Below are positions 692 to 25,064 of a stretch of 31,106 nt of DNA, piece by piece (within the stretch, counting starts at the first letter, position 1; the number at the start of each line of letters is the position of its first letter). Both the position numbers and the translations under genes were made by a program. The stretch is taken from the NCBI GenBank assembly GCA_021804705.1, contig JAJZHC010000001.1:1-31106 (forward strand), given 5' to 3'. The notes under the pieces are model-generated. The model had not been told where the DNA came from. It ran no database searches and worked only from the letters and a program-made list of their open reading frames with translations. The DNA is from Pseudomonadota bacterium. Lineage in GTDB: Bacteria; Pseudomonadota; Gammaproteobacteria; Burkholderiales; Ferrovaceae.

Positions 692-1696
692 GTGCGCTCC
701 ACAGTTGAAGCGGTACAACCCGTGGTGGTGTTGATCGCCACCGGTGGCACCATTGCCATGAAGATCGATCCCGTCATAAACGCCCCGGTTCCCGCCATTT
801 CGGGTGACGACCTGCTCGCCACCGTACCGGGAATGAGCCAGTACGCCAAGGTTGAAGTCATCAATGTGTGCAACGTGCCCTCCGGTTACATGGATCCGGT
901 ACGCTGGGTGCAGTTGACGAAGGTGGTCCAAGAGACGCTGGCACGCCCGGAAGTGTCCGGCGTCATCGTGTCGCACGGCACCGACACCCTGGAAGAAACC
1001 GCCTATTGGCTGGACCTCACCGTCCAGTCAGAGAAACCCGTGGTCTTGATCGGCGCCCAGCGTAACGCCTCGGAATCGGGCTTTGACGGCCCGAATAACC
1101 TCCTCAATGCTGTGCGCATTGCGGTGGATCCGCAAGCCTGCGGCAAAGGCGTGATGCTGGCCATGAACGGCCAGATCAATGCGGCGCGTGAAGTCACCAA
1201 AACGCATACCTCCAGCGTGGAAACTTTCAAATCTGGCGACTACGGTTTCATTGGCGTGGTGGACAATGATCGTGTGATGTTTGCGCGCGCGCCCTTGCGT
1301 CGTCAGTTTGTACCGCTGAAGGCTACGACCATGCCGGATGTTGAAATTGTCGCCATGTATGGCGGGGCCGACGGCCGGCTTCTGCGCGCCGCGGTGGATA
1401 GTGGCGCCCAAGGCATTGTGGTGCAGGCACTGGGATGGGGCAACATGAACATTCCCATGTTTTCAGCCGTCAAGTATGCGTTGTCAAAAAACATTCCTGT
1501 GGTGATTGCCAGTCGCGTTCCAAACGGACGGGTACTGCCCAACTACGGGTTTGAAGGTGGCGGCAAAACCATCGTGGATGCTGGTGCCGTGATGGCTGAC
1601 GATTTGTCTCCACAAAAATCGCGCATCCTGCTGATGCTGCTACTGCAAAACGGCGTAAGCAGCCAGCACGATCTGCAGGCTGCCTTTAGTCACTAA
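692..1696 (+). CDS. L-asparaginase family protein
   Basis: Catalytic motifs ATGGTIA, HGTDTLEET and KTHTSSVETF. Likely start is GTG 692, right after the thioesterase stop (the ORF track uses TTG 653). No signal peptide is visible. Confidence 0.9.
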   Translation: MRSTVEAVQPVVVLIATGGTIAMKIDPVINAPVPAISGDDLLATVPGMSQYAKVEVINVCNVPSGYMDPVRWVQLTKVVQETLARPEVSGVIVSHGTDTLEETAYWLDLTVQSEKPVVLIGAQRNASESGFDGPNNLLNAVRIAVDPQACGKGVMLAMNGQINAAREVTKTHTSSVETFKSGDYGFIGVVDNDRVMFARAPLRRQFVPLKATTMPDVEIVAMYGGADGRLLRAAVDSGAQGIVVQALGWGNMNIPMFSAVKYALSKNIPVVIASRVPNGRVLPNYGFEGGGKTIVDAGAVMADDLSPQKSRILLMLLLQNGVSSQHDLQAAFSH

Positions 1697-2455: not shown

Positions 2456-2548
2456 GATCATTCCTTTGATATAAAGCAGCGCATAAACGGCAAATCTATC
2501 CAACAGCACTGCGAGGTAAACATGATGTATCGTCTCGCCAAGTATATC

Positions 2549-2564
2549 TGTGCGATAGCGAACA
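2549..2564. promoter_or_regulatory. Palindromic box TGTGCG-ATAG-CGAACA (candidate Crp/Fnr-family site)
   Basis: Intergenic. The inverted repeat extends to ATCTGT..ACAGAT. CATCAT lies 21 nt away toward the Ysc84 gene. Confidence 0.7.
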
Positions 2565-2576
2565 GATCCCATGTAT

Positions 2577-2900
2577 TTATCGAAGCTCGATGGGAAAAAA
2601 CAGGCTAATTCCCGGAGACGGCATGGGTGGGTAATAGACGGGTGGGGGCACGTAGACGGGTTGGGCGTACATGTAAGGGTAGTAACCCGGGCGGTCTTCG
2701 CGCCGGTTGTCATGGCCATGACCATAGTGGCGATTGCGCTCGTTACCGAGAGCCCCTGGACCCCCTTCATGGCCGCGATTATTCTGGTCTCCACGATTGT
2801 TTTGATCGCCCAATGCTGGCAGCGCGATCAAACTGGAAGTCGAAGCTATGAGCGCCACGGCCATCGCCATCTTTTTGATTTCTGTTCCAAGGATGTCCAA
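2577..2900 (-). CDS. Small secreted protein with a Pro/Tyr-rich C-terminus, unknown function
   Basis: Signal-peptide-like N-terminus, a DQNNRG duplication and a YxPPPVYYPP tail ending GISLFFPIELR. TTG start with GGAG ~7 nt upstream. Confidence 0.65.
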   Translation of the reverse strand: MDILGTEIKKMAMAVALIASTSSLIALPALGDQNNRGDQNNRGHEGGPGALGNERNRHYGHGHDNRREDRPGYYPYMYAQPVYVPPPVYYPPMPSPGISLFFPIELR

Positions 2901-2938
2901 TTTAACTCTCCATTTGTCAGAAACGTGAAAAGCAGAGC

Positions 2939-3403
2939 CTATTTTTTCTGTCTTGTCTTATGGTTGGCGCCCTGGCGAAACAGTTCGTCTGCATCCAGCT
3001 TTTGGGCATCGGTCATGCTCTCGTAAAGATTTTCAAAGACCGGGGCAAATTTCCTGATGGCTTCAGCATGGGCATCGACAATCTCGCCATAGGACTTAAG
3101 ATCCTCAACTGCATTCATGGTCTTGACGTTGTTGATTCTGGTTTGAGTCAGTGCGTCCATTTTTTTGGCGTTTTCACGCATGACGTCAGAAACCATGGAC
3201 CACTTTTCTTCTTGTTCAGGGGTAATTCTGAGCCGGGCATGCATGTTTTTGATGCGAAGCTCGACGCGTTCAACTTCGCTTGCTTTTGTGCCAGCCGTAC
3301 CTGCAATGGACGGGATTGCAGTAAACCCAATCGTGGCAACCAAAGCAGCCGCCACCGCCGTGCGCACACTGGTGTTTGTAAATTTTAAAAAATATTGATT
3401 CAT
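2939..3403 (-). CDS. Spy/CpxP (LTXXQ) family periplasmic protein
   Basis: Signal peptide, LRITPEQEEKW and SMTDAQK motifs, all-helical composition. Confidence 0.8.
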   Translation of the reverse strand: MNQYFLKFTNTSVRTAVAAALVATIGFTAIPSIAGTAGTKASEVERVELRIKNMHARLRITPEQEEKWSMVSDVMRENAKKMDALTQTRINNVKTMNAVEDLKSYGEIVDAHAEAIRKFAPVFENLYESMTDAQKLDADELFRQGANHKTRQKK

Positions 3404-3497
3404 TGCCGATCTCCTAGGGGACGTAAGGCATAAATGCCAGGCAATCAGTGGGAAAGACGATTCATGATGTATCTTCCTCCACGTTTAAAAACAAATA

Positions 3498-3513
3498 TGT
3501 GCGCCAGCGCACG
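3498..3513. promoter_or_regulatory. Palindromic box TGTGCG-CCAG-CGCACG
   Basis: Lies in the divergent intergenic region between the Spy-like gene and DUF4398. Confidence 0.7.
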
Positions 3514-3569
3514 GTGAAAGGACATCGCCATAAAGTTTAATGAGGTTGACGCATTTTCCATGGGAAACG

Positions 3570-3965
3570 ATGATGAAAAATATACTTATAATCAAATCAA
3601 TATCTGTGATGCAGGGAGCCGGCCTCATGGCTGCTTGCACACTTTTTGTGGCCGGTTGCGCAAGCATTCCGGCGCCAACCGAACAGATGACCATCTCAAG
3701 AGCTGCAGTGACCGAGGCCTCCACCGCCGGCAGCAACGAATATGCGCCCAGTCAGCTGAAAACCGCCATGGAGAAAATGGGTGGAGCAGAACAGGCCATG
3801 TCTGAAAAAAATTATGAGCAGGCCAGAAGTCTCGCCGAACAAGCCCAGGTGGATGCGCAATTGGCTCTAGCCACGACGCGTGCAGCCAAGGCCAAAAAGT
3901 CGGCAGACGCATTGCATGAAGACGCTCACGTACTTCGTGAAGAAATGAACCGAAATGCCAAGTAA
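3570..3965 (+). CDS. DUF4398-domain lipoprotein
   Basis: Lipobox FVAGC, then AVTEA...YAP..L..A..K...A and LAEQAQVDAQLA. Start is ATG 3570 or 3573. Confidence 0.75.
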   Translation: MMKNILIIKSISVMQGAGLMAACTLFVAGCASIPAPTEQMTISRAAVTEASTAGSNEYAPSQLKTAMEKMGGAEQAMSEKNYEQARSLAEQAQVDAQLALATTRAAKAKKSADALHEDAHVLREEMNRNAK

Positions 3966-3983
3966 TCCTCTCTGGAGTTGATC

Positions 3984-4871
3984 ATGCAAAAGAATTTTAA
4001 TTTCCCCATGTCCTTGATTGCTGTTGCGGCGTTAGCCAGTTGCAGCACCATGCCACAAAATTCATTACTGACGGATGCGCATCACAGTTATGACATGGCA
4101 CGGAATGATCCTCAGGTCACAACGCTTGCTCCCGTAGAGTTACGGGAGGCCGGCGATTCCCTGCTCAAGGCTGACAATGCCATGAGCAAAGATGAAAGCG
4201 AAGCAACAGTAAATCAACTGGCGTATATCGCCAGACAGAAAGTAAGGATTGCCCAGGAATCTGCCCAGCGCAAAGCTGCCGAGCAGGAAATTGCCAAGGC
4301 AGCGTCACAGCGGGATCACGACAGACTGGCAGCCAGAACGGCAGAAGCTGATGCGTCCAAGGCGCAGGTGGTCGCGATTCAGCAAACCGCGGATCAGCAA
4401 GCTACTGCTCTGGCAGTAGCAGGCGCCAATTCCGAACGCGATCGTGCGCGCATCGCAAAACAGGAGTCGCAGCTCAAGGATCTCAATGCTAAAAAGACGC
4501 AGCGCGGTATGGTGATTACATTGGGTGACGTCCTGTTCCACACCAACAAGTCTGAAGTAAACCCAGCCGGCATGCACAATGTACAAAAGCTGGCGGATTT
4601 TCTCATGCAATACCCGCAAGAACGTGTCTTGATAGAAGGCTACACCGACAGTACCGGTGGCGAAACTCTCAATCAAAATCTTTCGGAGCGACGTGCCGAA
4701 GTGGTACGCATGACACTGGTAAGAATGGGTGTCAGCGGCGACCGAATTGAAACAAAGGGCTATGGAGAGTCCTATCCGATTGCTGACAATAACACCCCTG
4801 TGAATCGTCAATTAAATCGGCGAGTGGAAATCATCCTCTCAGATGAGAATAAAAGGATCGCTCCACGTTAA
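3984..4871 (+). CDS. Lipoprotein with N-terminal DUF4398 and C-terminal OmpA-like peptidoglycan-binding domain
   Basis: Lipobox ALASC; RGMVITLGDVLF, IEGYTDSTG, NQNLSERRA and NRRVEIIL. GGAG lies 6 nt before ATG 3984. Confidence 0.9.
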   Translation: MQKNFNFPMSLIAVAALASCSTMPQNSLLTDAHHSYDMARNDPQVTTLAPVELREAGDSLLKADNAMSKDESEATVNQLAYIARQKVRIAQESAQRKAAEQEIAKAASQRDHDRLAARTAEADASKAQVVAIQQTADQQATALAVAGANSERDRARIAKQESQLKDLNAKKTQRGMVITLGDVLFHTNKSEVNPAGMHNVQKLADFLMQYPQERVLIEGYTDSTGGETLNQNLSERRAEVVRMTLVRMGVSGDRIETKGYGESYPIADNNTPVNRQLNRRVEIILSDENKRIAPR

Positions 4872-4894
4872 TCCGCTATCACGAGGACTAAAAA

Positions 4895-5053
4895 ATGTCA
4901 CTTGGAAACATCTTACTCATCGTTCTGGTGCTGTTGCTGATTGGTGTGATTCCCACCTGGCACCACAGCCATTCGTGGGGTTATGCTCCGAGTGGCGGGC
5001 TTGGCCTGCTATTGATTATTGTGGTTGTTTTGATGCTGATGGGGCGCTTGTAA
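4895..5053 (+). CDS. DUF3309-family small membrane protein (52 aa)
   Basis: Not in the ORF track. MSLGNILLIVLVLLLIGVIPTWHHSHSWGYAPSGGLGLLLIIVVVLMLMGRL matches the PTWxHSxxWGYxPSGGLG signature. GAGG RBS upstream. Confidence 0.85.
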   Translation: MSLGNILLIVLVLLLIGVIPTWHHSHSWGYAPSGGLGLLLIIVVVLMLMGRL

Positions 5054-5065
5054 CAGGCTGACCGG

Positions 5066-5353
5066 TCATTTGAATTTCGAATGGGCCACGGCAATGCCGG
5101 CCTTGAGGTCCTCCCAGACTTTGTCAGCGGTGCCTTTGAGGTGTACCCACGCCTCACCTCTGGCTTTTCCAAGTTCTTTCAATTTTTCAGAAGCCACGTT
5201 TTGCTTGGCTCGCAGTGCGCGAAGTTCATCGACACCTTTGACTTTCATATCGGCGCCCGCATTCTCCATCTTGGCTTCCAGTAAATTGATCTGTGCGCTC
5301 CATTCTTTCAGTTGTGCCGCCATTTTTTGCTTATAGGCATCTTGGGAATTCAT
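5066..5353 (-). CDS. Coiled-coil small protein (sll1863-like stress-associated family)
   Basis: AYKQKMAAQLKEWSAQI...AW..LK...DK.W.DLK pattern. GGAG RBS upstream. Confidence 0.7.
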   Translation of the reverse strand: MNSQDAYKQKMAAQLKEWSAQINLLEAKMENAGADMKVKGVDELRALRAKQNVASEKLKELGKARGEAWVHLKGTADKVWEDLKAGIAVAHSKFK

Positions 5354-5398
5354 GGTTCACTCCAAATCATAGGGTGATAATCAAAGGGATTTTCAGAA

Positions 5399-5779
5399 TT
5401 ACTTTACGAACAGTCTGTTTTCAACGCTTTTTACGCCGGTTATTGCACTGGCTAACGATTTTGCTTTGTCACTATTTTGTTGCGAATCCACGGATCCGCT
5501 CAAAGTCACGATACCCTTCGCTGTATCTACGCTGATTTGCAGCGTTTTGAGTCCGGGCTCAGCAAATATGGCTGATTTGACCTTGGTCGTAATCTCGGAA
5601 TCATCGAGGTTGACACTTAATTTTTCGCTTTTTTCATCTAGCTTCTTATTGGCATCATCAACTACCTGATCAAACTTTTTCCCAGCTGTCTCCGCGGGAC
5701 CAGGTTTGTTGCATGCAGTCAGACCGGCGACGATAAACAGGGAAATACCGATCAATTGGACATTCTTGATTGCGTTCAT
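5399..5779 (-). CDS. BON-domain (OsmY-like) lipoprotein
   Basis: Lipobox LTAC; DDSEITTKVKSA, ISVDTAKGIVTLSG and GVKSVENRL. Confidence 0.85.
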   Translation of the reverse strand: MNAIKNVQLIGISLFIVAGLTACNKPGPAETAGKKFDQVVDDANKKLDEKSEKLSVNLDDSEITTKVKSAIFAEPGLKTLQISVDTAKGIVTLSGSVDSQQNSDKAKSLASAITGVKSVENRLFVK

Positions 5780-5841
5780 TTTGGCTCTCATTCAAAACAG
5801 GTTCGTGAACATTATTTAACACCTGTTTTTCAAGGACGCTC

Positions 5842-5857
5842 CGTTCGCTATCGCACA
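5842..5857. promoter_or_regulatory. Palindromic box CGTTCG-CTAT-CGCACA
   Basis: Its reverse complement shares 15 of 16 bases with the box at 2549. Lies in the divergent BON/His-rich intergenic region. Confidence 0.65.
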
Positions 5858-5885
5858 TAACTCAGGTTTTGCTGATTGATATTTA

Positions 5886-5901
5886 TGTACGCCACCAGAC
5901 A
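5886..5901. promoter_or_regulatory. Degenerate box TGTACG-CCAC-CAGACA with downstream -10 TACTAT (5923-5928)
   Basis: Perfect left half and a right half with two mismatches. The -10 lies exactly 21 nt downstream, toward the His-rich gene. Confidence 0.55.
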
Positions 5902-5998
5902 GAAATTCTACTGTTCGTTCCTTACTATGGGGCCGTGAGTCGCTGTTTTGGTTCACTGAAGTGATGGATCCATAGTTGATTAATTTCTGGAGAAGTAA

Positions 5999-6250
5999 AT
6001 GACACAGTTACATGCGAAGAATACAGAATCGTCCCCATTGCATACGCAGGAGCAACATCATCATCAAGCTGCTGAGCATCATGAGCAGGCCTCAAAGCAC
6101 CACAAGGAGGCCGCAAAGCATCATGAGTCTGGTGATCACAAGGCAGCTGCGCATCATGCCCAGGTGGCTCATGGACATATGGCCCAAGCCAGCGAGCATG
6201 GGGCAGAAGCCAGCAAGAAGTATGCGAATACTTTGAGTCCTAAAAAGTAA
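5999..6250 (+). CDS. His-rich small helical protein (83 aa), probable metal binder
   Basis: 17 His in 83 aa, with HH pairs in heptad register. GGAGAAG RBS upstream. Confidence 0.75.
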   Translation: MTQLHAKNTESSPLHTQEQHHHQAAEHHEQASKHHKEAAKHHESGDHKAAAHHAQVAHGHMAQASEHGAEASKKYANTLSPKK

Positions 6251-6370
6251 TTCAAATCAACACCAGATCTGCAGAAGAAAATGCGCCTGCGTTCGAAAGC
6301 CAAGTCTGTTCTTGAACGCAGGCTCAAAATGACTGCACATTCCCCGATCCAGTTTTTAGAGGGTTATGCC

Positions 6371-6727
6371 ATGAATATAAAATCATTTTTTAATCGGATG
6401 CTTGGTGCACTGTTTTGGATCAGTGTTTTTTCAATATCTCCGGTCGTCAATGCAGAATTAATTGGCACGGAGAAACTGGCTCAGCCTGATCAAGTCCAGG
6501 ACAGAGTAGTTGTTGACAGTTTTATTGTCCGTTCCGATGTTCAGAAGAAGCTGCAGGAGATGGGATTGAGTGCCATTGTCACTGCACAGCGTGTGGCTTT
6601 GCTTAGCGACTCTGAAGCACGGGAGCTCTCGCAAAAATTCGATCTATTGCCGGCAGGTGGCAGCTTTTCTAACAATGAACTCATCATTATTCTGTTGGCC
6701 GTCGTGTTGCTGGTGCTTATCCTGTGA
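6371..6727 (+). CDS. PA2779-family protein
   Basis: Signal-like N-terminus; DVQKKLQEMG, RVALLSDSE and LPAGG followed by a C-terminal hydrophobic anchor. Confidence 0.7.
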   Translation: MNIKSFFNRMLGALFWISVFSISPVVNAELIGTEKLAQPDQVQDRVVVDSFIVRSDVQKKLQEMGLSAIVTAQRVALLSDSEARELSQKFDLLPAGGSFSNNELIIILLAVVLLVLIL

Positions 6728-6796
6728 TTATCCTGATAATCTAGCTTGGTGTTTTGAGGCAATCTGAGGACTGATGTGATGGGCGCAGAATGCATG

Positions 6797-6836
6797 AAAA
6801 GACCAGGGTGGCTATCATGCCACCCTGGTCTTTTTT
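6797..6836. terminator. Bidirectional intrinsic terminator
   Basis: AAAAGACCAGGGTGGC-TATCAT-GCCACCCTGGTCTTTTTT, a 16-bp stem flanked by A and T runs, between convergent genes. Confidence 0.9.
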
Positions 6837-6856
6837 CAGTCTACAACGGCCAGATG

Positions 6857-7999
6857 CTACTTTGTACCGGAAACTTCTACCTCTACTCGGCGATCGGGTT
6901 GCAGGCAGTCGACCAGCTTTTTAGTTACTTTTTTGCCTTTGCATTCACCAGGCTTCGTTACAGGCTCAGAGCCGTCCATACCCTTGGTAGTGATCTTTCC
7001 GGCGGGGATGCCAGCAGACTCCACCAGGTAATCTTTGACAGATTCAGCACGGCGCTTCGAGAGCTTGACATTATAGTCATGCTTGCCGATTCGATCCGTG
7101 TGCCCAGTGACTGTGATGACACCAAACTCTGTTCCCTTGAGCTCTGAAGCAAATCTGTCCAGTGCTTGTTTGCCTTCAGGCCGCACCCTCGATTTGTCGA
7201 ATCCAAAAAGTGAATCCGCAGTGAATGAGACTTTCTTGTGGACAGTCGGCGGCGGTGTAACAACCACTGGTTCCGGTTTTGGCTCTGGTGCTGCGGCAAC
7301 CACAACGGGTACGGGCTCTGCAGCTCGGGGTGCAGGGGCCGGTTCGGCCTTCTTTCCACCAAAGCGGTAGACCAGACCAACAGAGACGAGATCAATGTCG
7401 CCCCGGTTTCCTACAGCATCGTTGATCCGGTAACGTTCTGCCTCGAGACGCATCCCGAGCGATTCATTGAATGCATACTGTAACCCAAGGCCCGCCTTGT
7501 AATTGGCATCTCCTTTGCTGGGGTTTGGATTGAGCACAGTGACTAATCCCGTTCCCGTAAAAGAATCCTTTGCATCGGAATAGATGGCCCCTATTCGGCC
7601 AAATGCCGAAAACTTTTCAGTGATGGGAAGAAAGCCAACCAGGTCCAGATTGACGCCATCGACTTTGGTGTTGCCATGCAGAGTTCCAGCGGGTGTGGTG
7701 GTGGAAGTAAATCCGAATGTTCCCAGATCAAAGTAACCGCCCTCAACCGCAAAATACTTGTTGAACAGATATCCGGCAAATACCTTGTAGCCGGTATCCC
7801 GGTTGTCATCCGTCATGGAGTTGGTGGTAAACCCGCTGCCTAAGAGGCTACGGGTGATTCGTGCATCATCAATAGTGGCTTTCGACTGGCCTACATTGCC
7901 ACCCACATACCACCCCAGGTCGTCCGCTACCGAGAACGGGCTGGAGATTAATGCGAGTGTCACCAGACCCATCGCCCCTGAGACTCTTGTTGATTTCAT
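6857..7999 (-). CDS. OmpA-family outer membrane protein (beta-barrel, Pro/Ala linker, peptidoglycan-binding domain)
   Basis: GWYVGGNVG, FAVEGGYFDLG and VSVGLVYRFG barrel strands; PAPAP linker; FTADSLFGFD, TGHTDRIG, LSKRRAESV and QPDRRVEVEV, with a Cys pair. GGAG RBS before ATG 7999. Confidence 0.92.
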   Translation of the reverse strand: MKSTRVSGAMGLVTLALISSPFSVADDLGWYVGGNVGQSKATIDDARITRSLLGSGFTTNSMTDDNRDTGYKVFAGYLFNKYFAVEGGYFDLGTFGFTSTTTPAGTLHGNTKVDGVNLDLVGFLPITEKFSAFGRIGAIYSDAKDSFTGTGLVTVLNPNPSKGDANYKAGLGLQYAFNESLGMRLEAERYRINDAVGNRGDIDLVSVGLVYRFGGKKAEPAPAPRAAEPVPVVVAAAPEPKPEPVVVTPPPTVHKKVSFTADSLFGFDKSRVRPEGKQALDRFASELKGTEFGVITVTGHTDRIGKHDYNVKLSKRRAESVKDYLVESAGIPAGKITTKGMDGSEPVTKPGECKGKKVTKKLVDCLQPDRRVEVEVSGTK

Positions 8000-8052
8000 G
8001 TTCTTCTCCAGAAATATGCGGTGCATTGATTGTGGTCTCTGATGCATCCCGT

Positions 8053-10026
8053 TTACGGGGCTGGTACGTTAATAATGGTGTTCACCAGCGTCACTGAAGA
8101 AACCAGACTCAGCACCCTGCCGTTTAATGTTGTCAGTAGGAGTGTATTCGTAGCATTCGCAGGGTTGGAGAACGTGGCGCCAGAGTAGGCAATGATGTTG
8201 CCTACCATGGTCCCACCGCCTGCATAGTTGATTACCGCGGCGCTACCCACTTGCCAATACACATTCTTGGGTTGAGCGGGAGCAATCAGGATGACATTTC
8301 TCGGGGCCGTGTCTCCTACAGTGAGGGAAGATGACGGCATCTTGAATACCCAGACTGCATTAGCATCACCGTGGGGGTCAAGGGTTAGATCTGAACCTGT
8401 GATTCCAAACCCACTACTGGAACTATAAACCCCGGGAGAGATGGTTTGCCCACCCAGGTTGGCAGGAGCCGTTCCAGTGACTGGCATATTTACCAGGGTT
8501 GTGTTCGCTGCCACTGCGTCGAGGCGAGCCTGGGTTGCAACCGCACAATACGAAGCATTGACAGCGGCAGACGTGGGGCCCGTGGTGGATGTCGTACAGG
8601 TATAAATTGTTCCATTCACAGCGCCAATATTGCTTGGGGTTTCCGTATAAATATCTCCTGCCGTATCGTGGAATCCAGTAACCATGGAAGTTCCTGTCGC
8701 GATGGTTCCAATGTCTCCATTGACTACGGTTTTGATTCCCTGATTGGTCATTCCAGATGATCCCCCAAAAGTCCCAAACGTCGAAGCCGTTCCAAGGATC
8801 GAGGGTGCTGGTGGTGCCGTTGCCGTGCAACTTCCTGCCGTAAAATCCCAGGAGTAGTCGTTAGCCATCATGTCTGCAGGAATGGCCAGATCCTTGACGC
8901 CTGTGCCACCACCTTTGATCGTAGCCGTATAGGTGACGCCGGGAGTAAGATTGTTCAGCGTCGTAAAAGTGGCTGTAAGACCTGTGGCTGCATCAAGCAC
9001 CACAGAAGCCGCTGTGACGGGGGTCGAAGCAGGGGCCGGTCCAGTCACCGTAAAGGTCGCAGAGTTGACGGTCAGTGGGTCCATCCGCACGCCGATGGGC
9101 AAGCTGAAGGTTGCATTGATTGTCAAACCCGGGCATAAGCCTGCCGAACCAGAGAAGGGGTAGGTGGATAGCACCGAGATATTGGCTGCCGGTATCGGTG
9201 CCGCCGTGGTATCGAAGGTCCATATGTAATTGCTTGCCGCGGGCAATGCCGCCTGATTACCTGCCAGGGCATTGCCAGCCAGATCCGTGGCGCCGGTGGT
9301 GATGGTGGCGGTATAGGTGGTCCCCGCTACAAGAATGGTTGTAGGTTTAAACACGGCAGTTCTTGAACCTACCACGTAAGACACGGCACCAGCTACAGGC
9401 GCGGTGCCAGGGCCAGTCACAGAAAAGCTCGTTGCGTTGATTGTTAACGGGGCCATATCCTCCGTGAATACGGCAGTGATTGCCGTATTGGTAGGAACAT
9501 CAGTAGTCGGACCCGGTGTCGTCGTGGCAGGATCGGTGAGCGAGACCCTGGGCCGTGTCGTGTCTGGCGCAAGACCTGTCGTAAAATGCCATACGTAAGG
9601 AACAGCCAGCGCCAGACCTGTGGAGATGCTCCGGGCGCCTGTGATCGTTCCAGTATATAGGGTCAGGGGAGCCAGATTCGCTGCCGTGGTGAAGGTGGCA
9701 ATTCGGTTAGTGGCATCCAGGGTCACGGTGCCTGTGGCGTTGGCGCAGGGTGTCGCGCAGGTCACGGTAAAGGTAGCGCCACCGGTCAACGGGGACATGG
9801 GCTCACTAAAAGCAGCGGTAATGATGGTGTTGTTGATGGGCACGCCAGTGGCGTTATTGACTGGGGCGACTGCAGTGACCGTTGGGGGTAGTGCAACAAT
9901 GCTGCCCACGCCCAGAATCGGATCACGCCCACCGCCACCACCTCCGCATCCTGCTGCCAAAGCGCTCAACAGCAATGCCATGGACCATGTCAGGAATCTG
10001 GAATACCCTTTGAGTTCATTTTTCAT
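8053..10026 (-). CDS. Lipoprotein with three bacterial Ig-like (Big_5/SbsA) domains and a C-terminal DUF3494 ice-binding-like domain
   Basis: Lipobox LAAGC followed by a Gly run. Three repeats of the P-x-V...A-x-F-S/T-E-x-M...T-x-Y-T-A-T-I-T...Y-x-W-x-F-T-T type. DUF3494 motifs LGTASTFG, TVVNGDIG, PGVY, LTLDPHGDANAVWVF, KNVYWQVGSAA and GNIIA. Start ATG 10026 with GAGGG RBS. Confidence 0.88.
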   Translation of the reverse strand: MKNELKGYSRFLTWSMALLLSALAAGCGGGGGGRDPILGVGSIVALPPTVTAVAPVNNATGVPINNTIITAAFSEPMSPLTGGATFTVTCATPCANATGTVTLDATNRIATFTTAANLAPLTLYTGTITGARSISTGLALAVPYVWHFTTGLAPDTTRPRVSLTDPATTTPGPTTDVPTNTAITAVFTEDMAPLTINATSFSVTGPGTAPVAGAVSYVVGSRTAVFKPTTILVAGTTYTATITTGATDLAGNALAGNQAALPAASNYIWTFDTTAAPIPAANISVLSTYPFSGSAGLCPGLTINATFSLPIGVRMDPLTVNSATFTVTGPAPASTPVTAASVVLDAATGLTATFTTLNNLTPGVTYTATIKGGGTGVKDLAIPADMMANDYSWDFTAGSCTATAPPAPSILGTASTFGTFGGSSGMTNQGIKTVVNGDIGTIATGTSMVTGFHDTAGDIYTETPSNIGAVNGTIYTCTTSTTGPTSAAVNASYCAVATQARLDAVAANTTLVNMPVTGTAPANLGGQTISPGVYSSSSGFGITGSDLTLDPHGDANAVWVFKMPSSSLTVGDTAPRNVILIAPAQPKNVYWQVGSAAVINYAGGGTMVGNIIAYSGATFSNPANATNTLLLTTLNGRVLSLVSSVTLVNTIINVPAP

Positions 10027-10165
10027 TTTCTTACCCTCTTCATCTGGTCCAGAAAGCCGCTTATGTGGCCGACAGACCTTAGTCGGTGCATACACCCGCC
10101 GTCCAACACAAATGCTGTACACGCAGGTCACGGACACAAGTCTCGCTTATTGAGGCTGGAAGCTC

Positions 10166-10181
10166 TGTACGGTGGCGTACA
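10166..10181. promoter_or_regulatory. Perfect palindromic box TGTACG-GTGG-CGTACA
   Basis: Upstream of the ice-binding gene; GAGACT lies 21 nt downstream on the - strand. Confidence 0.75.
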
Positions 10182-10235
10182 TAGCCTGATGATTTTTGCG
10201 GTAATGAGCGAAAATGAGACGGTTTTGTGGCTGGC

Positions 10236-11009
10236 TTACTTGCCCAGAAACCAGAACATCGAGAGCATGGCGATGTCCATGACGCCCGTGCCTGCCCAGC
10301 CTAATATCCTGATTTTCATGGAAATGGCGAACGGGCCCATGACTTCCCGTCTTGAAGCCAGTAGCATGATGACAACCATGATGGAAACTGAAATCACCCC
10401 GTTGATGACAGCGCTCCAGTAGAGAGCCTTGATCGGGTCAATGGGTGTGAAGCAGAGCAAGACACCCATCAAAGTTGATAAGGCAATGATGCCGTAAAAC
10501 CGCTTTGCCGCTGCAAAGCCTCAATTCCAGGCCATTGCGCCACGCAAATGCCCCCGCCATGCCGATGGAGGTGTCCAGCCTGATACAAGGAATGAAAATC
10601 TGCAGGATAAGAGAAAGGATGCCGAAAAGAATCGCATAAAGGTGTTTGGGACCGCCAACCATCAATTTCATGGCATATCCCATGGCAGCAATATCAGCTG
10701 CAATATTGATGGTGTTAGCAAACAGGAGCAATCCAACAACGCCATGCAGCAGCCAGGCGGGAAATTGCTGGCGAATGTTGGTGGCAAGAACGTGGCCATT
10801 GACGCGACCAATCCGGGCGCTGATGACCTGGATAGCCACCATCAACGGATAGGTTAGCAGTATCGCCCACAACATGCTGAAGCCAAACTGGGCGCCAGCC
10901 TGTGAATAGGTGGCAATGCCGCTGGGGTCGTCGTCAGTGTCCCCGGTGATCAATCCTGGGCCAAGGTTTCTGACCCAGGAGGGCGATGATATTCCTGCTT
11001 TCGCGGCAG
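10236..11009 (-). pseudogene. Nramp/MntH-related divalent metal transporter, decayed
   Basis: GPGLITG..DDDPSGIATYSQAGAQFG N-terminus and PIDPIKALYWSAVING C-terminus are in different frames. Middle segments IRLDTSIGM and AGAFAWRNGLEL are juxtaposed, there is a frameshift near 10515, and no convincing start codon. Confidence 0.85.
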
Positions 11010-11717
11010 TCAGCTCATGATTCTGGTGTAAGTTTCCTTGTCTGCAGCATAGCATTCGCATGCAGCACCTTCCAGGCCATCACCATTGAGAATGGTGATT
11101 TCACCGCGACCGTAACGAATAAATTTTTGATTTTGCAGTGATGTGGCAGCCTTGGTGACGCCAACGCGACGTACGCCCAGCATGTAGGCCATAAATTCAT
11201 GGGTGATGTGAAATTGATTGGAGTGTGCACGATCCCGGGTCATCAGCAGCCAACGCGCAAGTCGTGCTTCCACCCGGTGAAAATGGGTACAAGCTGCGGT
11301 TTGCGAGAGCTGGGCAATAACGACGCCAAGATAGCGTCTTAACTCCAGTTGCAGGGCAGCGCTCCGGTCGATTTCAAGTCGAAATAACGCAGCTTTCATG
11401 CGCAGTGCCACGCCGCCGCCTTGCACCAGGACATGCAACGATGAAACATCAGTGCCCAGCATCAAGGGAACGCCAAACATTCCTTCATCACCGATCAGGC
11501 CCACTTCCAGTCCTGCATGGCCACCAATGGGGGCAATCAGGGAAATGAAACTGTCGGTGGGAAAGTACACATGGTGAATGCGCTCGCCTGGTTCAACCAG
11601 AACTTCAGAAAAATTGAGCTCGACGGACTCGCAACCTGCCATAAACTGCATGCGGTATTTGTGCGGCAAGGCGTCCAGAATATGGTTTGAAAATGTCGCT
11701 GGAATGAGCGCGGACAC
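11010..11717 (-). CDS. Crp/Fnr-family transcriptional regulator (paralog B)
   Basis: cNMP-like beta-roll (VYFPTDSFISL...EVGLIGDEG), RLARWLL, HTH THEFMAYMLGVRRVGVTKAA and C-terminal CECY. GTG start with AAAGGAG. Confidence 0.92.
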   Translation of the reverse strand: MSALIPATFSNHILDALPHKYRMQFMAGCESVELNFSEVLVEPGERIHHVYFPTDSFISLIAPIGGHAGLEVGLIGDEGMFGVPLMLGTDVSSLHVLVQGGGVALRMKAALFRLEIDRSAALQLELRRYLGVVIAQLSQTAACTHFHRVEARLARWLLMTRDRAHSNQFHITHEFMAYMLGVRRVGVTKAATSLQNQKFIRYGRGEITILNGDGLEGAACECYAADKETYTRIMS

Positions 11718-11785
11718 TGGACTCCTTTAAGCGTGGGCACCGGGGGAAAGCTTGTCCCACAGTGGGCCAAAAAAGAGAGGGCGTC

Positions 11786-11801
11786 TGGGCGGTAGCGCAC
11801 A
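11786..11801. promoter_or_regulatory. Palindromic box TGGGCG-GTAG-CGCACA
   Basis: Upstream of Crp paralog B; CACTGT lies 21 nt downstream on the - strand. Confidence 0.7.
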
Positions 11802-11851
11802 GAACGAGGGTGAAATATGTGCCTTGAGCTTGCGCGGAAGAGGGGGAATGA

Positions 11852-12301
11852 TTACTTTGATAGCAGGCGGTCAAACTCCCTATTGACCACCATATAGCAC
11901 TCTCAGACTCGGGCTTCCAGGCGCGGCCGGTCAAGCACCAGGATGTGGCCGCGGCTGTATTTGATCAAGCCTTCTCATTGCAGACGACCTGCAGCTTCGG
12001 TGACATCCTCGCGACGCACCCCCAGCATGTTGGAAATCAGCTCCCGGGTCATGACAATTTCGTTGGAAGTCAGGCGGTCGAGGCTGAGCAGCAGCAGACG
12101 ATGCAGTTCACCGTGGTGGTTGAATTCGTTCAGCAATGTATTCACATGCAGACGGTAGGCATGACCGGCACTTTGCACGATGGCCTGGGTAGGCGTGGTT
12201 TCGCTACCCATGTACCGGGCGACGCTGATAACGCCTTCATAGCCTTCCGCTGGCAGGGCGGCGAGGATGTGATTCTGGCAGGGGTCAGAAACGTTTGGCA
12301 T
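11852..12301 (-). pseudogene. Crp/Fnr-family regulator remnant
   Basis: Collinear with the 12323-13030 paralog but with two in-frame internal deletions and in-frame TGA codons at 11975-11977 and 11903-11905. The frame continues *EGLIKYSRGHILVLDRPRLEARV*ECYMVVNREFDRLLSK to TAA at 11852. Confidence 0.88.
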
Positions 12302-12322
12302 TGAACCCCCTGTTGCTGATAG

Positions 12323-13030
12323 TCAGTCAGGAAGCAGTCGGTCAAATTCCTTTTTGACCACTGCATAGCATTCACAGGCCCGCTTTTCCAAGCCGGCGCG
12401 GTTCAGTATGGTGATGTGGCCCCGGCTGTACTTGATCAAGCCTGCTTTTTGCACGTTTCCTGCGGCCTCGGTGACTCCCTCCCGGCGCACGCCGAGCATG
12501 TCTGCAATCAACTCCTGCGTCATGACCAATTCGTTGGAGTTGAGGCGATCGAAACTCAGCAACAGCCAGCGGCAAAATTGCTGGTCCAATGTGTGGTGTC
12601 GGTTGCATACCGCGGTCTGTGCCATTTGCGTCAGCAGCGCCTGGGTGTAGCGCAACAATAATCGTTGCATGGGACCGGCGCGATAGAACTCGTGTTTCAG
12701 GAGCGGCCCCCTCAACCGGTAGGCGTGCCCGGCGCTTTGCACCACGGCGCGGCTGGGTGTGGACTCGCCGCCCATGAAGAGTGAGACTCCGACAATCCCT
12801 TCGTTGCCCACCACGGCAATTTCTGCCGATGAACCATCTTCCATGACGTAGAGGAGGGAAACGATCGAGTTGATGGGAAAATAAACATAGCTCATCTGAA
12901 TGCCAGATTCGTAAAGCGACTCTCCGAGAGGCAGGGGAATCCGTTCCAGATTGGCGAAGATACGCTCGTAGTCTTCCGACGGCAAAGCGGCTAGGAGGTG
13001 ATTCTCACGGGGATCATGAGCTAGTGGCAT
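12323..13030 (-). CDS. Crp/Fnr-family transcriptional regulator (paralog A)
   Basis: YVYFPINSIVSL, AVVGNEG, CRWLLL, HTH TQELIADMLGVRREGVTEAA and CECY. AGGAGG RBS. Confidence 0.93.
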   Translation of the reverse strand: MPLAHDPRENHLLAALPSEDYERIFANLERIPLPLGESLYESGIQMSYVYFPINSIVSLLYVMEDGSSAEIAVVGNEGIVGVSLFMGGESTPSRAVVQSAGHAYRLRGPLLKHEFYRAGPMQRLLLRYTQALLTQMAQTAVCNRHHTLDQQFCRWLLLSFDRLNSNELVMTQELIADMLGVRREGVTEAAGNVQKAGLIKYSRGHITILNRAGLEKRACECYAVVKKEFDRLLPD

Positions 13031-13079
13031 ACAAAAGCCTCCTGTTGACGGGCCTAGTGTACATTCTTTCCATGGATTG

Positions 13080-13095
13080 TGTGCGGTATCGTACA
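13080..13095. promoter_or_regulatory. Palindromic box TGTGCG-GTAT-CGTACA with -10 TAGGAT (13117-13122)
   Basis: Between the divergent Crp paralog A and glucan synthase genes; the -10 is exactly 21 nt downstream on the + strand. Confidence 0.75.
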
Positions 13096-13178
13096 GAGGC
13101 TGCTACGACCAGAGTATAGGATTATCGGATGCGGGGGAACCCGTTCCCAGGCGACCATTTCCAGTTGAGGATTTCCCT

Positions 13179-16100
13179 TTGTTGATTGTGAGCCGGACCC
13201 GCGAACGGATCACTCAGGCTTTTGCCCGGAACAGCACATTAAGTCGGTGGCCGAGGATATTGCCTGATGAAGAGCCTCCGTTGCGCTCTGTGCTGTTTAG
13301 CGCCGATCAGATGGCACAGCACGGCAAGGTTTTCGCGGCGGCACATCAGCTGGCTGCAGGAACAGCCCCAGATTTGTTGCTGACCCGGTTGGCCGAGAAC
13401 GAAAGCGCTCTGACCCGGATATGTAATTTGCTGACAGAGGCGGTTACTGCAAAGCGCCGCATCACGCCAGCGGGGGAATGGCTGCTCGACAATTTCTATC
13501 TCATAGAAGAACAAATTCGTACGGCCAAAAGACATCTTCCCAAGGGTTACAGTTTTGAACTGCCGCGCGTGGCCTCTAGCCCATCGGCAGGGCGTCCGCG
13601 CGTGTATGACATTGCGCTCGAAGTGATCGCGCACGGTGATGGTCGCGTGGATATGGAAAGCCTCAGCCGCTTCGTGACGGCCTACCAGACCGTGGCAGCC
13701 CTCAAGTTGGGCGAACTATGGGCCATCCCCATCATGCTGCGCCTGGCGCTCATAGAAAATCTCCGTCGGGTCGGCACCCGGATTGCCATAGAGTGGTTTG
13801 AACGGGATCTGGCAGATTCTTGGGCAGACAGGATGACGGAGATTGCGGAGAAGGATCCCAAGAGCCTGATTCTGGTGATCTCGGACATGGCACGCTCAAA
13901 CCCGCCCATGGCAAGTCCCTTCGTCGCGGAGCTCGCGCGTCGCTTGCAGGGACGAGGCCCTGCGCTGGCGCTACCGCTGACCTGGATTGATCAGCGCCTT
14001 GCGGAATCCGGATTGACCATCGAGCGACTGGTTCAGTCAGAAAATCAGCATCAGGCTTCCGACCAGGTTTCCATCAGCAACTGCATCGCCAGTCTTCGGG
14101 TTTTGGGTGCGGTGGATTGGCGTGAGTTTGTGGAGACCATGAGTGTCGTCGAGCAGACACTGCTTGAGGATCCCAGTGGAATCTACGGCAGGATGGATTT
14201 TGTCACTCGTGATCGTTATCGCCACGCAACGGAAGGAATCGCAAAGAAAAGCATCCTGACCGAGCAGGAAGTCGCCAGAAAAGCCGTGGAGTTGGCAGGT
14301 GCTGGTATGGATGATCGTGCGCGACATGTAGGTTACTACCTGATCGGCAAGGAATTGCCCAAGCTTGAGCAGCTTGTGGGTTTTCGCCGCTCCATATTTG
14401 GGGCCGTGCTAAAAGCCGCCGGGCGATTGCCGTTGCTCCCGTATCTGGGTGGAATCGTGTTGATTGCAGCGTTGATTTGCATGGGCATGGTCATGCAGGC
14501 GCGTTCAGAAGGTATTTCAGGTATTGCGTTGTTCGGCGTTGCCATCGTCGTATTGATCGCTGCCAGCCAGTTGTCCGTAGCGTTGGTGAATTGGGTGGCC
14601 ACATTGCTGGTGTCGCCCCATGCATTGCCAAGAATGGACTTCTCCGACGGTATTCCAGATACGGCGCGAACACTGGTGGTGGTGCCGACCATGCTGACCA
14701 ATGCACTGGATATCGAAGCGTTGGTTGAGGCGCTGGAAGTCCGGTTTCTGGCAAACCAGGATAAATGCCTGCACTTTGGATTGTTGACAGATTTTTGCGA
14801 TGCACTTCAGGAGTCACTCCCGGAAGATGGCGCGCTGGTCCAGCTGGCGCATGCCAGAATTGACGAATTGAACGAGAAGTATAGGGCTGGCGAGAAGGGG
14901 GCTCAGGGGGATTTCTTCTACCTGTTTCATCGTCCCAGGCGATGGAATCCGCAGGAACGGGTGTGGATGGGTTACGAGCGCAAGCGCGGCAAGTTGTTGG
15001 ATTTGAACGCGTTGCTTCGCAGAAGCGATCAAGATCTTTCCGCGAGTAACTTCTCGTCCATTGTGGGTGATACCGCAATGCTGTCCAGCGTGAAATATGT
15101 CATCACACTCGACACGGATACACAACTGCCACGCGATGCAGCGCGTCAGTTTGTCGGAGCGATGGCGCACCCGCTCAATCGCGCACGCTACGACGAAGAA
15201 AAGAAACGCATCACGGAAGGCTATGGAATCCTGCAACCGCGTGTGGCCATCAGCCTTCCGGGAGCGAGTCGGTCCCGCTACGCAAGGTTGTACGGAGGGG
15301 AGCCTGGCATTGATCCCTATACGCGTGTCGTCTCGGATGTATACCAGGACGTATTTGACGAGGGTTCGTTTGTTGGCAAGGGAGTTTACGATGTTGATGC
15401 CTTCGAGCTGGCGCTCAATGGGCGCCTCCAGGAAAATTGCATCCTCAGCCATGATCTGCTCGAGGGATGTTACGCCCGCTCAGGGCTGTTGAGCGACGTG
15501 TATTTATATGAAGACTACCCGGTTTGCTACAGCGTCGATGTGAGCCGGCGTTATCGGTGGATACGCGGCGATTGGCAGCTGGTGGGATGGTTGCTGTCAC
15601 GCGTCCCGGGTGGCGACACCAACCCGCTTTCGCTACTGTCGCAATGGAAGCTGATTGATAACATGCGGCGCAGCCTCGTGCCAGCGGCGCTGACGTTGAT
15701 GTTTATATTGGGATGGTCGGTCCTCTCGCCGCCAGGGCTATGGATCGGGTTGGCGATCGGCATCATGCTTGTTCCCGCCTTATGCGTTTCTTTCCTGGAT
15801 TTGTTTCGCAAACCGGAGGAGGTATTGCTCAGGCAGCATCTTCTGGCCGTGTTGCGTTCGGCCTCCAGGCGCCTCACACAAGCGGTTTTCGAAATCTCCT
15901 GCCTTCCATTTGAAGCCTATTTCAGTCTGGGAGCCATTACGCAAACGGTATGGCGGATGGTGGTGACCCACAGGCGATTGCTGGAATGGAATCCTTCTGC
16001 AGCTGCCGAGCACGGCCTAACCAGCAAGGGAGGCAACGAACTCGTGGTCAGTTTACGGGCCATGTGGGTTGCTCCTGCGGTCGCCATTGCGTTGACGTTT

Positions 16101-21914: not shown

Positions 21915-21931
21915 GTCAAAGAGAGGTCGCC

Positions 21932-21961
21932 AAAAAACAGGGCCAGCTTGCGCTGGCCCTG
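21932..21961 (-). terminator. Intrinsic terminator for the 21967-22335 gene
   Basis: On the - strand: CAGGGCCAGC-GCAA-GCTGGCCCTG-TTTTTT, a 10-bp stem with a GNRA loop and U-tract. Confidence 0.85.
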
Positions 21962-21966
21962 AGAGT

Positions 21967-22335
21967 TCAGTTCATACGGGTTTGCGTTTTGTCCTGATGA
22001 CTCTGGAATTGCAGCAGTTGGGCGCGCACGTTCTGCTGCGCCTTCATGAAAGCGGCATGATGGGCTTCCAGCCTGGCCTGGGTGGTCTTGGCCGCGCGGG
22101 TGTTGCCGGCAGCAAGCTCAAGGTTGAGCTGGGCATGTGCAGCACGGATCAGCGTGGCTTGTTGGGCCACTTCATCCACACTGGCGCGCAGGGTGCTGGC
22201 GAGGCTCGCTTGCAGGGCCTTCTGCTGGGTCACGGAAGCAGGCACTTCCAGAGCGACAGCAAAAAGGGGGGATAATGAAGCCGCCAAGAGCAGGGCGGTG
22301 CGCTTGAGACGCAGAGCTTGTGTAGTCAGTTTCAT
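21967..22335 (-). CDS. Exported Ala/Gln-rich helical hypothetical protein (122 aa)
   Basis: AAAGGAG RBS before ATG 22335; signal peptide MKLTTQALRLKRTALLLAASLSPLFAVA; has its own terminator. Confidence 0.7.
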   Translation of the reverse strand: MKLTTQALRLKRTALLLAASLSPLFAVALEVPASVTQQKALQASLASTLRASVDEVAQQATLIRAAHAQLNLELAAGNTRAAKTTQARLEAHHAAFMKAQQNVRAQLLQFQSHQDKTQTRMN

Positions 22336-22521
22336 TGTGAATTCTCCTTTAAAAGTGGTGTCGTACTCGTTGATGCAAAGATTCGGTGCTACAAGGTTTG
22401 ATTTTATGTGCTTGGCCAACACGCCAGGGTTAATCGGTTATACTTATCAAATCAATTAGTTGGAGGTTGCTTTGTCGGGTCAGATGCGCTCCCCCATACC
22501 CGACTTCAGGGCCGATTATAC

Positions 22522-22550
22522 TTGACTTATGGGAAAAAATCCCATATTAT
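22522..22550 (+). promoter_or_regulatory. Sigma70-type promoter TTGACT-N17-TATTAT containing a 19-bp palindrome TATGGGA-AAAAA-TCCCATA (22528-22546)
   Basis: 5/6 match at both hexamers with 17-nt spacing; the ATG of the DUF6502 gene starts 7 nt after the -10. Confidence 0.8.
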
Positions 22551-22556
22551 TCACGC

Positions 22557-23432
22557 ATGGATGAAAAAAAATCACGACTGGACCCGGATCAGGTGCTGCA
22601 GCAAGCTCTTGTGGTCATGCAGCCTCTGGTGTTGTGGCTGCTGCGCTCGGGTGTGCGCCATCCAGAGTTTTCAGTGGCCATCAAGCAAACTTTTCTAGAG
22701 CAGGCGGCCAGCGAACTGGAACGCCTGAACGCCAAACAGACGGATTCCGCCATCAGCATGCTCTCCGGCCTGCACCGTAAGGATGTCAAGGCCATGGTGA
22801 CGGCTCTGGCCCAGGCGTCTAAGAAGACATCCAGGATCACCCGCGACGCGCTGGGACGTCCCACCGTGCCCTCGCAGGTCATGACCCGCTGGCTCGCCAG
22901 CGGCTGGCCGGACGAGTTGCCCATGTCGGGTTCCACCAAATCCTTTGAAATCCTCTCGCGCCAGGTTTCCAGCGACGTGCATCCGCGCGCGGTACTCAAT
23001 GAGCTGGTTCGCTTGGGGATGGCTGAACAGGAAGGGGATACGGTCCGCCTGTGCCGCAACGCCTTTGTCCCCGACCAGCAGATGGCAGAAGCAGGAAACC
23101 TTCTCGCGGGCAGCACAGCAGACCATCTCGCCGCAGGCGTGCATAACCTCTCGGGCCCTGGCGACAGGAAGTTTCTCGAGCAAAGCATGTTTGCCGACGG
23201 ACTTTCCACCGATTCGGTGCAGCAGCTGGAACAGCTTGCGGGCGCCCTGTGGATGCAGGTACTCAATGCCATGGTGCGCGCTGCGCTGCCCCTGAGCGAA
23301 AAGGACGAGCCGGCAGGGGGAGACCAGCGCATCCGCGTGGGCATGTTCTGTTATGCAGAACCCGCCGCGCCCCGCTTACCCCAGGTCCACAAGAAGAAGC
23401 CGCGCAAGCCGCGTGGCGCTTCGGGTCAATGA
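22557..23432 (+). CDS. DUF6502-family protein (probable HTH-containing regulator)
   Basis: PLVLWLLRSGV, SAISMLSGLHRKDV (HTH-like), LSRQVSSDVHPRAVLNELVRLG, DHLAAGVHN, FLEQSMFADGLS and RIRVGMFCY. Confidence 0.75.
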   Translation: MDEKKSRLDPDQVLQQALVVMQPLVLWLLRSGVRHPEFSVAIKQTFLEQAASELERLNAKQTDSAISMLSGLHRKDVKAMVTALAQASKKTSRITRDALGRPTVPSQVMTRWLASGWPDELPMSGSTKSFEILSRQVSSDVHPRAVLNELVRLGMAEQEGDTVRLCRNAFVPDQQMAEAGNLLAGSTADHLAAGVHNLSGPGDRKFLEQSMFADGLSTDSVQQLEQLAGALWMQVLNAMVRAALPLSEKDEPAGGDQRIRVGMFCYAEPAAPRLPQVHKKKPRKPRGASGQ

Positions 23433-23463
23433 ATCGTTGAATTCGTATGGAAGAGTCAATCGA

Positions 23464-24996: not shown

Positions 24997-25021
24997 CGCC
25001 CAACCCCCTGGGTGTTTTTCC

Positions 25022-25050: not shown

Positions 25051-25064
25051 GGGGCAGTGGGATA

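Follow-up and report, generated by a model that had tools for sequence, protein, structure and literature searches.

Which protein reads a short palindrome that recurs seven times between the genes of a single stress-related block is the question raised by a 31,106-nucleotide stretch of a Ferrovaceae genome (order Burkholderiales; assembly GCA_021804705.1, contig JAJZHC010000001.1, positions 1 to 31,106), hereafter the window. An earlier note, made from the letters of the window, had described the palindrome as a 16-mer, TGTRCG-N4-CGYACA, and had assigned it to two neighbouring Crp/Fnr paralogs, here termed A and B. The analysis presented here indicates, with good confidence, that the palindrome is a 20-bp operator of a distinct, uncharacterised Crp/Fnr subfamily, which comprises A and probably B and is predicted to work by class II activation. 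The seven boxes are thus predicted, very probably correctly, to be docking sites of a Crp/Fnr-type regulator encoded on the same genomic island.

The seven boxes and their counterparts in other genomes

The seven sequences listed in the earlier note are all present at the positions it gave and, under the gene map of the window, all are intergenic; together they cover every transcription unit of the stress block, nearly all of whose promoter regions that note had described as carrying one. With up to one mismatch, TGTRCG-N4-CGYACA occurs five times in the window against 0.33 expected, a count that none of 100 shuffles reached. Allowing two mismatches gives 10 sites where 5.0 are expected, an excess that is not significant for the 16-mer pattern by itself, and the weak boxes starting at 5842 and 5886 consequently needed independent support. 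A 20-bp weight matrix was built from sites of other genomes only, with the window excluded. Its top seven matches in the window are the same seven boxes (27.6, 27.1, 26.3, 24.8, 22.6, 22.0 and 17.1 bits), the next-best match reaching 7.7 bits. The matrix does not match background DNA, the seven boxes stand apart from the rest, and the high-GC flanks, where the earlier note had seen no copies, hold no match above 7.7 bits.

The assembly is a 1.47-Mb metagenome-assembled genome (MAG) of 206 contigs that is 76% complete, the window being contig C206. Of the 11 sites with up to one mismatch in the whole assembly, the window accounts for five, both exact ones included. At 15 bits or more there are nine sites, seven of them in the window, with shuffles giving 2-5, and six of the seven matches of at least 20 bits fall inside the 20-kb island described below. 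The two sites of at least 15 bits outside the window, roughly the number that shuffles yield, are C3:2338 (20.8 bits) and C42:13924 (15.4 bits). The first of these (C3:2336-2355, locus L109) lies ~125 bp ahead of a selD-like (selenophosphate synthetase) gene, and no class II hexamer was seen there at the exact spacing.

Relatives of paralog A are encoded in at least 566 places in a scan that took one genome per species, their hosts including Accumulibacter, Propionivibrio, Thiobacillus, Aromatoleum, Halomonas, Variovorax, Polaromonas, Steroidobacter and a MAG labelled Leptospirillum. The closest relative among the matches listed comes from a Ferrovaceae MAG (92% identity), and identity to A is 70-84% across Beta- and Gammaproteobacteria and 80% in the Leptospirillum-labelled MAG. 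Within the same order, A homologues (60-92% identity) are distributed patchily, often as two to four clustered copies per genome, with a box adjoining. The comparative set, formed by the 80 best loci with homologues of A (1.39 Mb), contains 209 boxes with up to one mismatch, compared with ~13 in block shuffles (range 6-20 in 20 shuffles), and in 65 of the 80 loci the regulator gene is preceded by a box. The 209 aligned sites display nearly invariant C (97%) and G (98%) at half-site positions 5-6 and a preference for a central CTAG. Beyond the 16-mer, at positions on which the search pattern placed no condition, T at -2 and A at +2 are conserved in 79% of the sites, and all seven window boxes share this outer T. 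The putative full operator is 20 bp long, T-n-TGTRCG-CTAG-CGYACA-n-A; the core of the 16-mer as first described is retained, and its length is revised because the motif extends further. Conservation beside orthologous regulators, on which the earlier proposal depended, was observed across Beta- and Gammaproteobacteria. Footprinting of orthologous promoters against the closest Ferrovaceae contig (L083) found only the regulator gene in common, in a different context. The predicted regulator-box pair recurs in hundreds of other Proteobacteria, Pseudomonas aeruginosa pKLC102 included.

The number of boxes in a genome also follows the presence of the regulator. The 20-mer was counted with up to one mismatch in 41 related genomes, with the reversed pattern as control. 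The 15 genomes with an A homologue hold 84 boxes against 15 for the control, and the 26 genomes lacking one hold 15 against 14. Box counts agree with the presence of A in 39 of the 41 relatives.

Promoter geometry and the mode of regulation

Coverage by open reading frames (at least 100 aa) proved useless as an intergenic test elsewhere, covering 93% of bases in high-GC loci, and because it was uninformative an oriented promoter profile was used instead. It comprised 240 box-gene pairs from other genomes, oriented to the downstream gene, with families taken only where present in at least three loci. Among 60 downstream positions, only A at +30.5 and T at +34.5 (57% each) stand out. A -10-like hexamer, nAnnnT, starts +29.5 from the box centre, which therefore places the box at -41.5, the class II position of CRP and FNR. 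At class II promoters an activator site centred near -41.5 replaces the -35 element, as does the CRP site TGTGA-N6-TCACA of Escherichia coli, centred at -41.5, for example at galP1.

In the window, nAnnnT occurs at exactly +29.5 for six of the seven boxes, each of which faces a real gene. Box 1 (TCTGTGCGATAGCGAACAGA, 2547-2566, minus strand; 27.1 bits) is in class II register for the Ysc84-domain gene, with the -10 CATCAT at 2522-2527, and box 2 (3496-3515, minus; 22.0 bits) for the Spy-like gene and the small secreted-protein gene, with GAAGAT at 3471-3476. Box 4 (5884-5903, plus), the weakest at 17.1 bits, has the same relation to the His-rich and DUF6627 genes (TACTAT, 5923-5928), and box 5 (TCTGTACGGTGGCGTACATA, 10164-10183, minus; 27.6 bits), an exact match, to the genes for the ice-binding-like lipoprotein and OmpA (GAGACT, 10139-10144). 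Box 6 (11784-11803, minus; 24.8 bits) is placed in this way ahead of paralog B (CACTGT, 11759-11764). Box 7 (TGTGTGCGGTATCGTACAGA, 13078-13097, plus; 26.3 bits), the second exact match, is so placed ahead of the glucan synthase gene (TAGGAT, 13117-13122) and also overlaps the promoter of paralog A, where TACACT lies on the minus strand at 13056-13061, +26.5 from the box centre. Box 3 (5840-5859, minus; 22.6 bits) faces the BON gene and the open reading frame at 5066-5353. The profile of the 240 pairs and six of the seven window boxes thus present the geometry predicted for activator-dependent class II promoters. An identical 11-nt string, GATACATCATG on the minus strand, follows the boxes starting at 2549 and 3498 (at 2522-2532 and 3464-3474) with offsets that differ by 8 nt, and overlaps the predicted -10/start region.

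Elsewhere, class II spacing is found for 22 of 27 B-type genes and for 83 of 150 other targets. The boxes of B genes (L024-L103) have a conserved, deviant promoter-proximal half-site, CGCCCA instead of CGCACA, which recurs in window box 6; this suggests a lower affinity and hence a delayed activation of B.

Several observations weigh against class II activation by A as a uniform account of the boxes. Box 3, facing BON, has no nAnnnT at +29.5 and is followed by AATAAT 4 nt further, and box 2 is out of class II phase with the divergent DUF4398 operon, where TAAAGT lies at +25.5. Outside the window, just 10 of 65 A-type genes have class II spacing, and the genes of those loci were called with our own crude codon-usage caller, so that target lists and distances are approximate. 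Finally, the one clear exception to the co-occurrence is genome G005, of the same genus and 99% complete, which has five good boxes and in which an A homologue was not found even at E<=1. The earlier proposal that the paralogs bind the box and co-regulate the island is supported in silico and passed the computational checks that the note had set out: clustering, co-occurrence and geometry speak for it, and the DUF4398-OmpA operon and BON lie off the exact spacing. Two of the G005 boxes (L104:3001-3020 and L105:3001-3020) are in a duplicated ~100-bp stretch and precede a PAS-GAF-GGDEF-EAL gene and a gene with no assigned family.

The island Crp/Fnr proteins might alternatively bind the boxes mainly as repressors, the genes being derepressed under stress, which we consider improbable. 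A box at -41.5 also covers the would-be -35 site, and A-type promoters fit autorepression, as elsewhere they combine near-consensus -10 hexamers (TATAAT, TATACT) at variable spacing (+26.5 to +29.5) with a box overlapping the -35 region. The target promoters, however, have a weak -10 (nAnnnT) at rigid spacing to the box, which counts against repression because activator-polymerase contact, and not occlusion, needs a fixed phase, and no -35-like conservation is observed beside or within the box.

A somewhat smaller probability is assigned to the boxes being read by another transcription factor that merely travels with the islands. G005, with its boxes and no detectable A homologue, would be explained in this way, and the PAS hybrid kinase often found nearby in other loci could in principle have a cognate response regulator that binds the box. 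Against this, the box resembles a CRP site in its 16-bp span, its outer TGT/ACA and its central CTAG, and occupies the class II position of CRP. A Pfam search of the island genes identified no regulator genes other than the Crp genes, the assembled genome holds no close homologue of the box-linked PAS hybrid kinase (best match 34%, a generic kinase), and boxes track A through nearly all of the relatives counted above.

That the boxes arose by chance, or are what is left of a mobile element or short repeat without regulatory function, would agree with the unenriched two-mismatch count but is already refuted by the one-mismatch excess, the surplus of boxes around homologues of A, the 9-bit gap given by an independent matrix, the intergenic position of all seven, the lack of similarity beyond 20 bp and the fixed -10 phase in many loci that span phyla.

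Paralogs A and B and the island that encodes them

Paralog A (P0001, 235 aa; 12323-13030, minus) and paralog B (P0002, 235 aa; 11010-11717, minus) share 38-40% identity, B aligning with A from end to end. Pfam assigns to A both PF00027 (cNMP_binding; 30.6 bits, cut-off 27.5) and PF13545 (HTH_Crp_2), and to B PF13545 only. The AlphaFold model of A has a mean confidence (pLDDT) of 90.7 and, in Foldseek, aligns over its full length with Mycobacterium tuberculosis CRP, GlxR, FNR and NtcA (TM-scores of 0.70-0.76; 14-21% identity). As modelled, A belongs to the Crp/Fnr superfamily, displaying a cNMP-type β-barrel, a long dimerisation helix and a C-terminal winged helix-turn-helix. Neither a close solved structure nor an NCBIfam equivalog came up in sequence searches of A.

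The recognition helix exists in two conserved forms, RREGVTE in A and RRVGVTK in B. In CRP the Arg-Glu pair at the start of this helix reads TGTG, and the pair is kept in A. Where CRP has Arg185, A has Glu and B has Lys. CRP mutants with altered specificity at Glu181 had prompted the idea that the A (Glu) and B (Val) helices divide their labour through G or A at box position 4; this was not supported, because half-site usage is alike whether B is present (G 55%, A 28%) or absent (G 51%, A 30%). Of the 80 loci, 51 have a B-type gene no more than 10 kb from A, and the other 29 still hold boxes. The comparative signal tracks the A type (RREGVTE) and, with boxes in these 29 loci, A is the likelier primary predicted binder.

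Characterised Crp/Fnr types offer no ready match. E. coli CRP contacts cAMP through Glu72 and Arg82-Ser83. This pattern could not be aligned to A by HMMER against GlxR (4cyd), where the Glu of GE(L) falls on a gap and R-T-S is opposite P-S-R, and the predicted protein does not appear to keep the cAMP-contact residues that mark CRP proper. FNR and Anr ligate [4Fe-4S] by an N-terminal Cys cluster and a central Cys, and their box is TTGAT-N4-ATCAA. An FNR-type N-terminal cluster was not found, as A has no Cys in its first 140 residues and B has C29 only. NtcA recognises GTA-N8-TAC, and the NtcA profile TIGR03697 scores 20.2 bits on A compared with a cut-off of 245. Two extra C-terminal helices extend beyond CRP and carry an invariant CxCY. 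Four residues, C142, H146, C219 and C221, do not vary across 35 sequences drawn from both paralog classes. In the model of A, C142 and H146 are at the hinge, where the dimerisation helix ends, and C219 and C221 are at the start of the family-specific C-terminal helix, which suggests that the four residues form a candidate metal or redox site.

The description of both regulators and boxes as island-encoded was borne out by comparison with G003, a genome of the same genus. G003 is colinear with window positions 704-1694 and then, after 32 bp, with 21931-25841. A 20.2-kb insertion at 1695-21930 of the window is therefore absent between conserved flanks of this relative; it contains all seven boxes and the regulator genes, and its G+C content is 45-57% compared with 60-65% in the flanks. 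Absence from G003 and deviating composition identify the insertion as a genomic island, a horizontally acquired block of stress and envelope genes in an acid-mine Ferrovaceae bacterium. In island-free G003 the asparaginase gene and the DUF6502/DUF5666 genes are neighbours, and genome G004 has another version of the insert at the same site. A short imperfect repeat occurs at both junctions (left, 1695-1745, CAGAAACCAGGG; right, 21915-21945, CAAAAAACAGGG), and the island ends showed neither an integrase nor a tRNA. In G003 the right-junction repeat is part of a terminator-like hairpin 3' of the asparaginase gene (L111:1999-2032).

The island opens with three minus-strand genes, encoding a Ysc84-domain protein (1892-2455), a small secreted protein (2577-2900) and an LTXXQ/Spy-like protein (2939-3403). 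A plus-strand operon at 3540-5053 follows, comprising genes for DUF4398 (3540-3965), DUF4398-OmpA (3978-4871) and a DUF3309-like protein. An unnamed gene of 95 aa (orf5066; 5066-5353) and the BON gene (5399-5791) are on the minus strand, and a gene for a His-rich protein of 83 aa (5999-6250) and the DUF6627 gene (6281-6727) on the plus strand. The minus strand then carries an OmpA gene (6857-8047) and a Big_5 and ice-binding-like lipoprotein gene (8053-10137, with a likely start at 10026). Pfam confirmed the gene list that the earlier note had given for this part of the island. A broken Nramp-family gene (10243-11061, minus) matches the Nramp gene of G004 in two pieces (10243-10561 and 10589-10997), and its 5' end overlaps the 3' end of paralog B. 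Between A and the unit formed by B and its box lies a decayed third Crp/Fnr copy of A type (11861-12300, minus), with two TGA stops and internal deletions, which is 70% identical to the A type over residues 153-233; in other genomes the box and B come directly after A, with no decayed copy intervening. The last gene, of ~2,900 codons (plus strand, start ~13179 to 13266, end 21914), is taken to be a putative cyclic β-1,2-glucan synthase, a name based on the earlier note, on a by-eye alignment to the N-terminus of Brucella Cgs and on the GH94 annotation of its counterpart in pKLC102.

The predicted circuit, its wider regulon and known systems

What was computed in silico is the box, its clustering, its co-occurrence with A, the promoter geometry and the island, and from these we infer that A binds and activates, how the cascade is ordered and what it may sense. 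A dimer at a box centred at -41.5 would stand in for the missing -35 element and recruit RNA polymerase, and six or seven units of the window would be switched on. These would be Ysc84, the Spy-like and small secreted proteins, BON with orf5066, the His-rich protein with DUF6627, the ice-binding-like lipoprotein with OmpA, paralog B and the cyclic glucan synthase; the DUF4398-OmpA operon might be activated too. Because class II spacing places paralog B, too, among the predicted targets, a cascade from A to B is proposed in which A would activate B, and A would be autoregulated, since its promoter combines a strong -10 with a box overlapping the -35 region. Control of the regulators by themselves, as the earlier note had it, is probably activation in the case of B, a predicted class II target, and autoregulation of either sign in that of A, whose geometry differs and is not fixed.

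In the other loci, the gene most often preceded by a box, the regulator genes apart, encodes a PAS-HisKA-HATPase-REC hybrid kinase (23 of 80 loci), followed by CsbD (16), BON (9), DUF4398 (8), Ysc84 (3), OmpA (3) and ice-binding-like genes (2); DUF3309, DUF883, PRC-barrel and glycine-zipper proteins are also found behind boxes. The RpoS and EcfG regulons hold the same small families, namely CsbD, DUF883 (ElaB/YqjD), BON (OsmY), DUF3309, PRC-barrel and OmpA-like proteins. Homologues of A with 70-75% identity are carried on plasmids or secondary replicons of Burkholderia, Ralstonia, Cupriavidus, Variovorax and Halomonas and on P. aeruginosa pKLC102, and integrative elements are also among the carriers. 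In pKLC102 (L113, record 83988-94501), as in the window, the gene for an A homologue (73% identity) is divergent from that for a GH94-type glucan synthase (~2,840 aa). Nearby, a fatty acid desaturase gene and genes for hypothetical proteins are preceded by boxes with class II hexamers. We regard the predicted module as self-contained and mobile by horizontal transfer.

A search of eight related Ferrovaceae genomes, three of them 99-100% complete, detected no RpoS above the TIGR02394 cut-off, and the own genome of the window also has no match, which carries low weight given its 76% completeness. The Ferrovaceae genomes (G000-G008) have RpoD-like and RpoH-like matches only; RpoS did turn up in two further families of the order. 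It is tentatively proposed that the module is a portable general-stress response, in which a redox- or metal-sensing Cys3-His site, formed by the hinge and the CxCY tail, would govern a feed-forward cascade from A to B that drives class II stress and envelope genes, and which may provide the whole general stress response in lineages where no RpoS is found, as in the Ferrovaceae genomes searched.

The 20-bp box and the fixed class II geometry make the regulon predictable in any genome. The likeness of the target set to RpoS- and EcfG-controlled proteins suggests a third, transferable wiring of general or envelope stress responses, seen here in a lineage of acidophilic iron oxidisers in whose searched genomes no RpoS was detected, and cyclic β-1,2-glucan synthesis appears to be tied to the circuit in two very distant hosts. 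The earlier note knew of no characterised regulator for the box, and a literature search whose coverage left out most subscription journals likewise retrieved no relevant paper on the box, operator, signal or regulon, or on Crp proteins with CsbD/BON, pKLC102 or glucan synthase.

In comparison with E. coli CRP, the predicted regulator shares the fold (TM-score of ~0.6-0.7), the Arg-Glu pair, kept in A, and a box centre at -41.5. The predicted operator has the same 16-bp two-fold symmetric core, outer TGT/ACA and central CTAG as the ideal CRP site, TGTGATCTAGATCACA, and keeps a pyrimidine-purine step (TG or TA) at the position where CRP kinks DNA. It differs from TGTGATCTAGATCACA in that the inner A-T is replaced by C-G (TGTGCG, not TGTGAT), and the proteins differ in their low identity (14%), the additional C-terminal helices and a stress and envelope regulon instead of a catabolic one. 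The fold of A also resembles that of Aliivibrio fischeri FNR (TM-score of ~0.75). The stress families apparently controlled are those of RpoS in Gammaproteobacteria and of PhyR-NepR-EcfG in Alphaproteobacteria, where a sigma factor takes the place of the mobile Crp-family activator predicted here.

The FixK box is TTGA-N6-TCAA, and FixK is placed downstream of the kinase in that system. FixLJ-FixK cascades occur in rhizobia, and one is described in Burkholderia (PMC5234846). Burkholderia FixK (BCAM0049) falls in with the Anr-like regulators. The present system resembles it in that a Crp/Fnr regulator is often found beside PAS histidine kinases, as in the loci with a box-carrying kinase gene. 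It differs in that the kinase gene is itself a box target in those loci, and the window island has no such kinase. The conceptually closest described system is the low-oxygen-activated (lxa) locus of B. cenocepacia, with a TGA-N6-TCA motif of Anr/Fnr type and Anr-like regulators (PMC3721108). Both are stress-gene clusters that share one Crp/Fnr-type palindrome and encode their own Crp-family regulators; they differ in the motif, in the lack of an N-terminal Cys cluster in A and B, and in the lxa genes themselves, which encode universal stress proteins, a small heat-shock protein and nrd functions. Identity of the regulators with Burkholderia FixK/BCAM0049 or with those of lxa was considered and rejected, the lxa motif and the Anr-like proteins belonging to a different subfamily. 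Beside these systems, the in silico evidence supports a subfamily, operator and regulon that are distinct and new within the Crp/Fnr kind.

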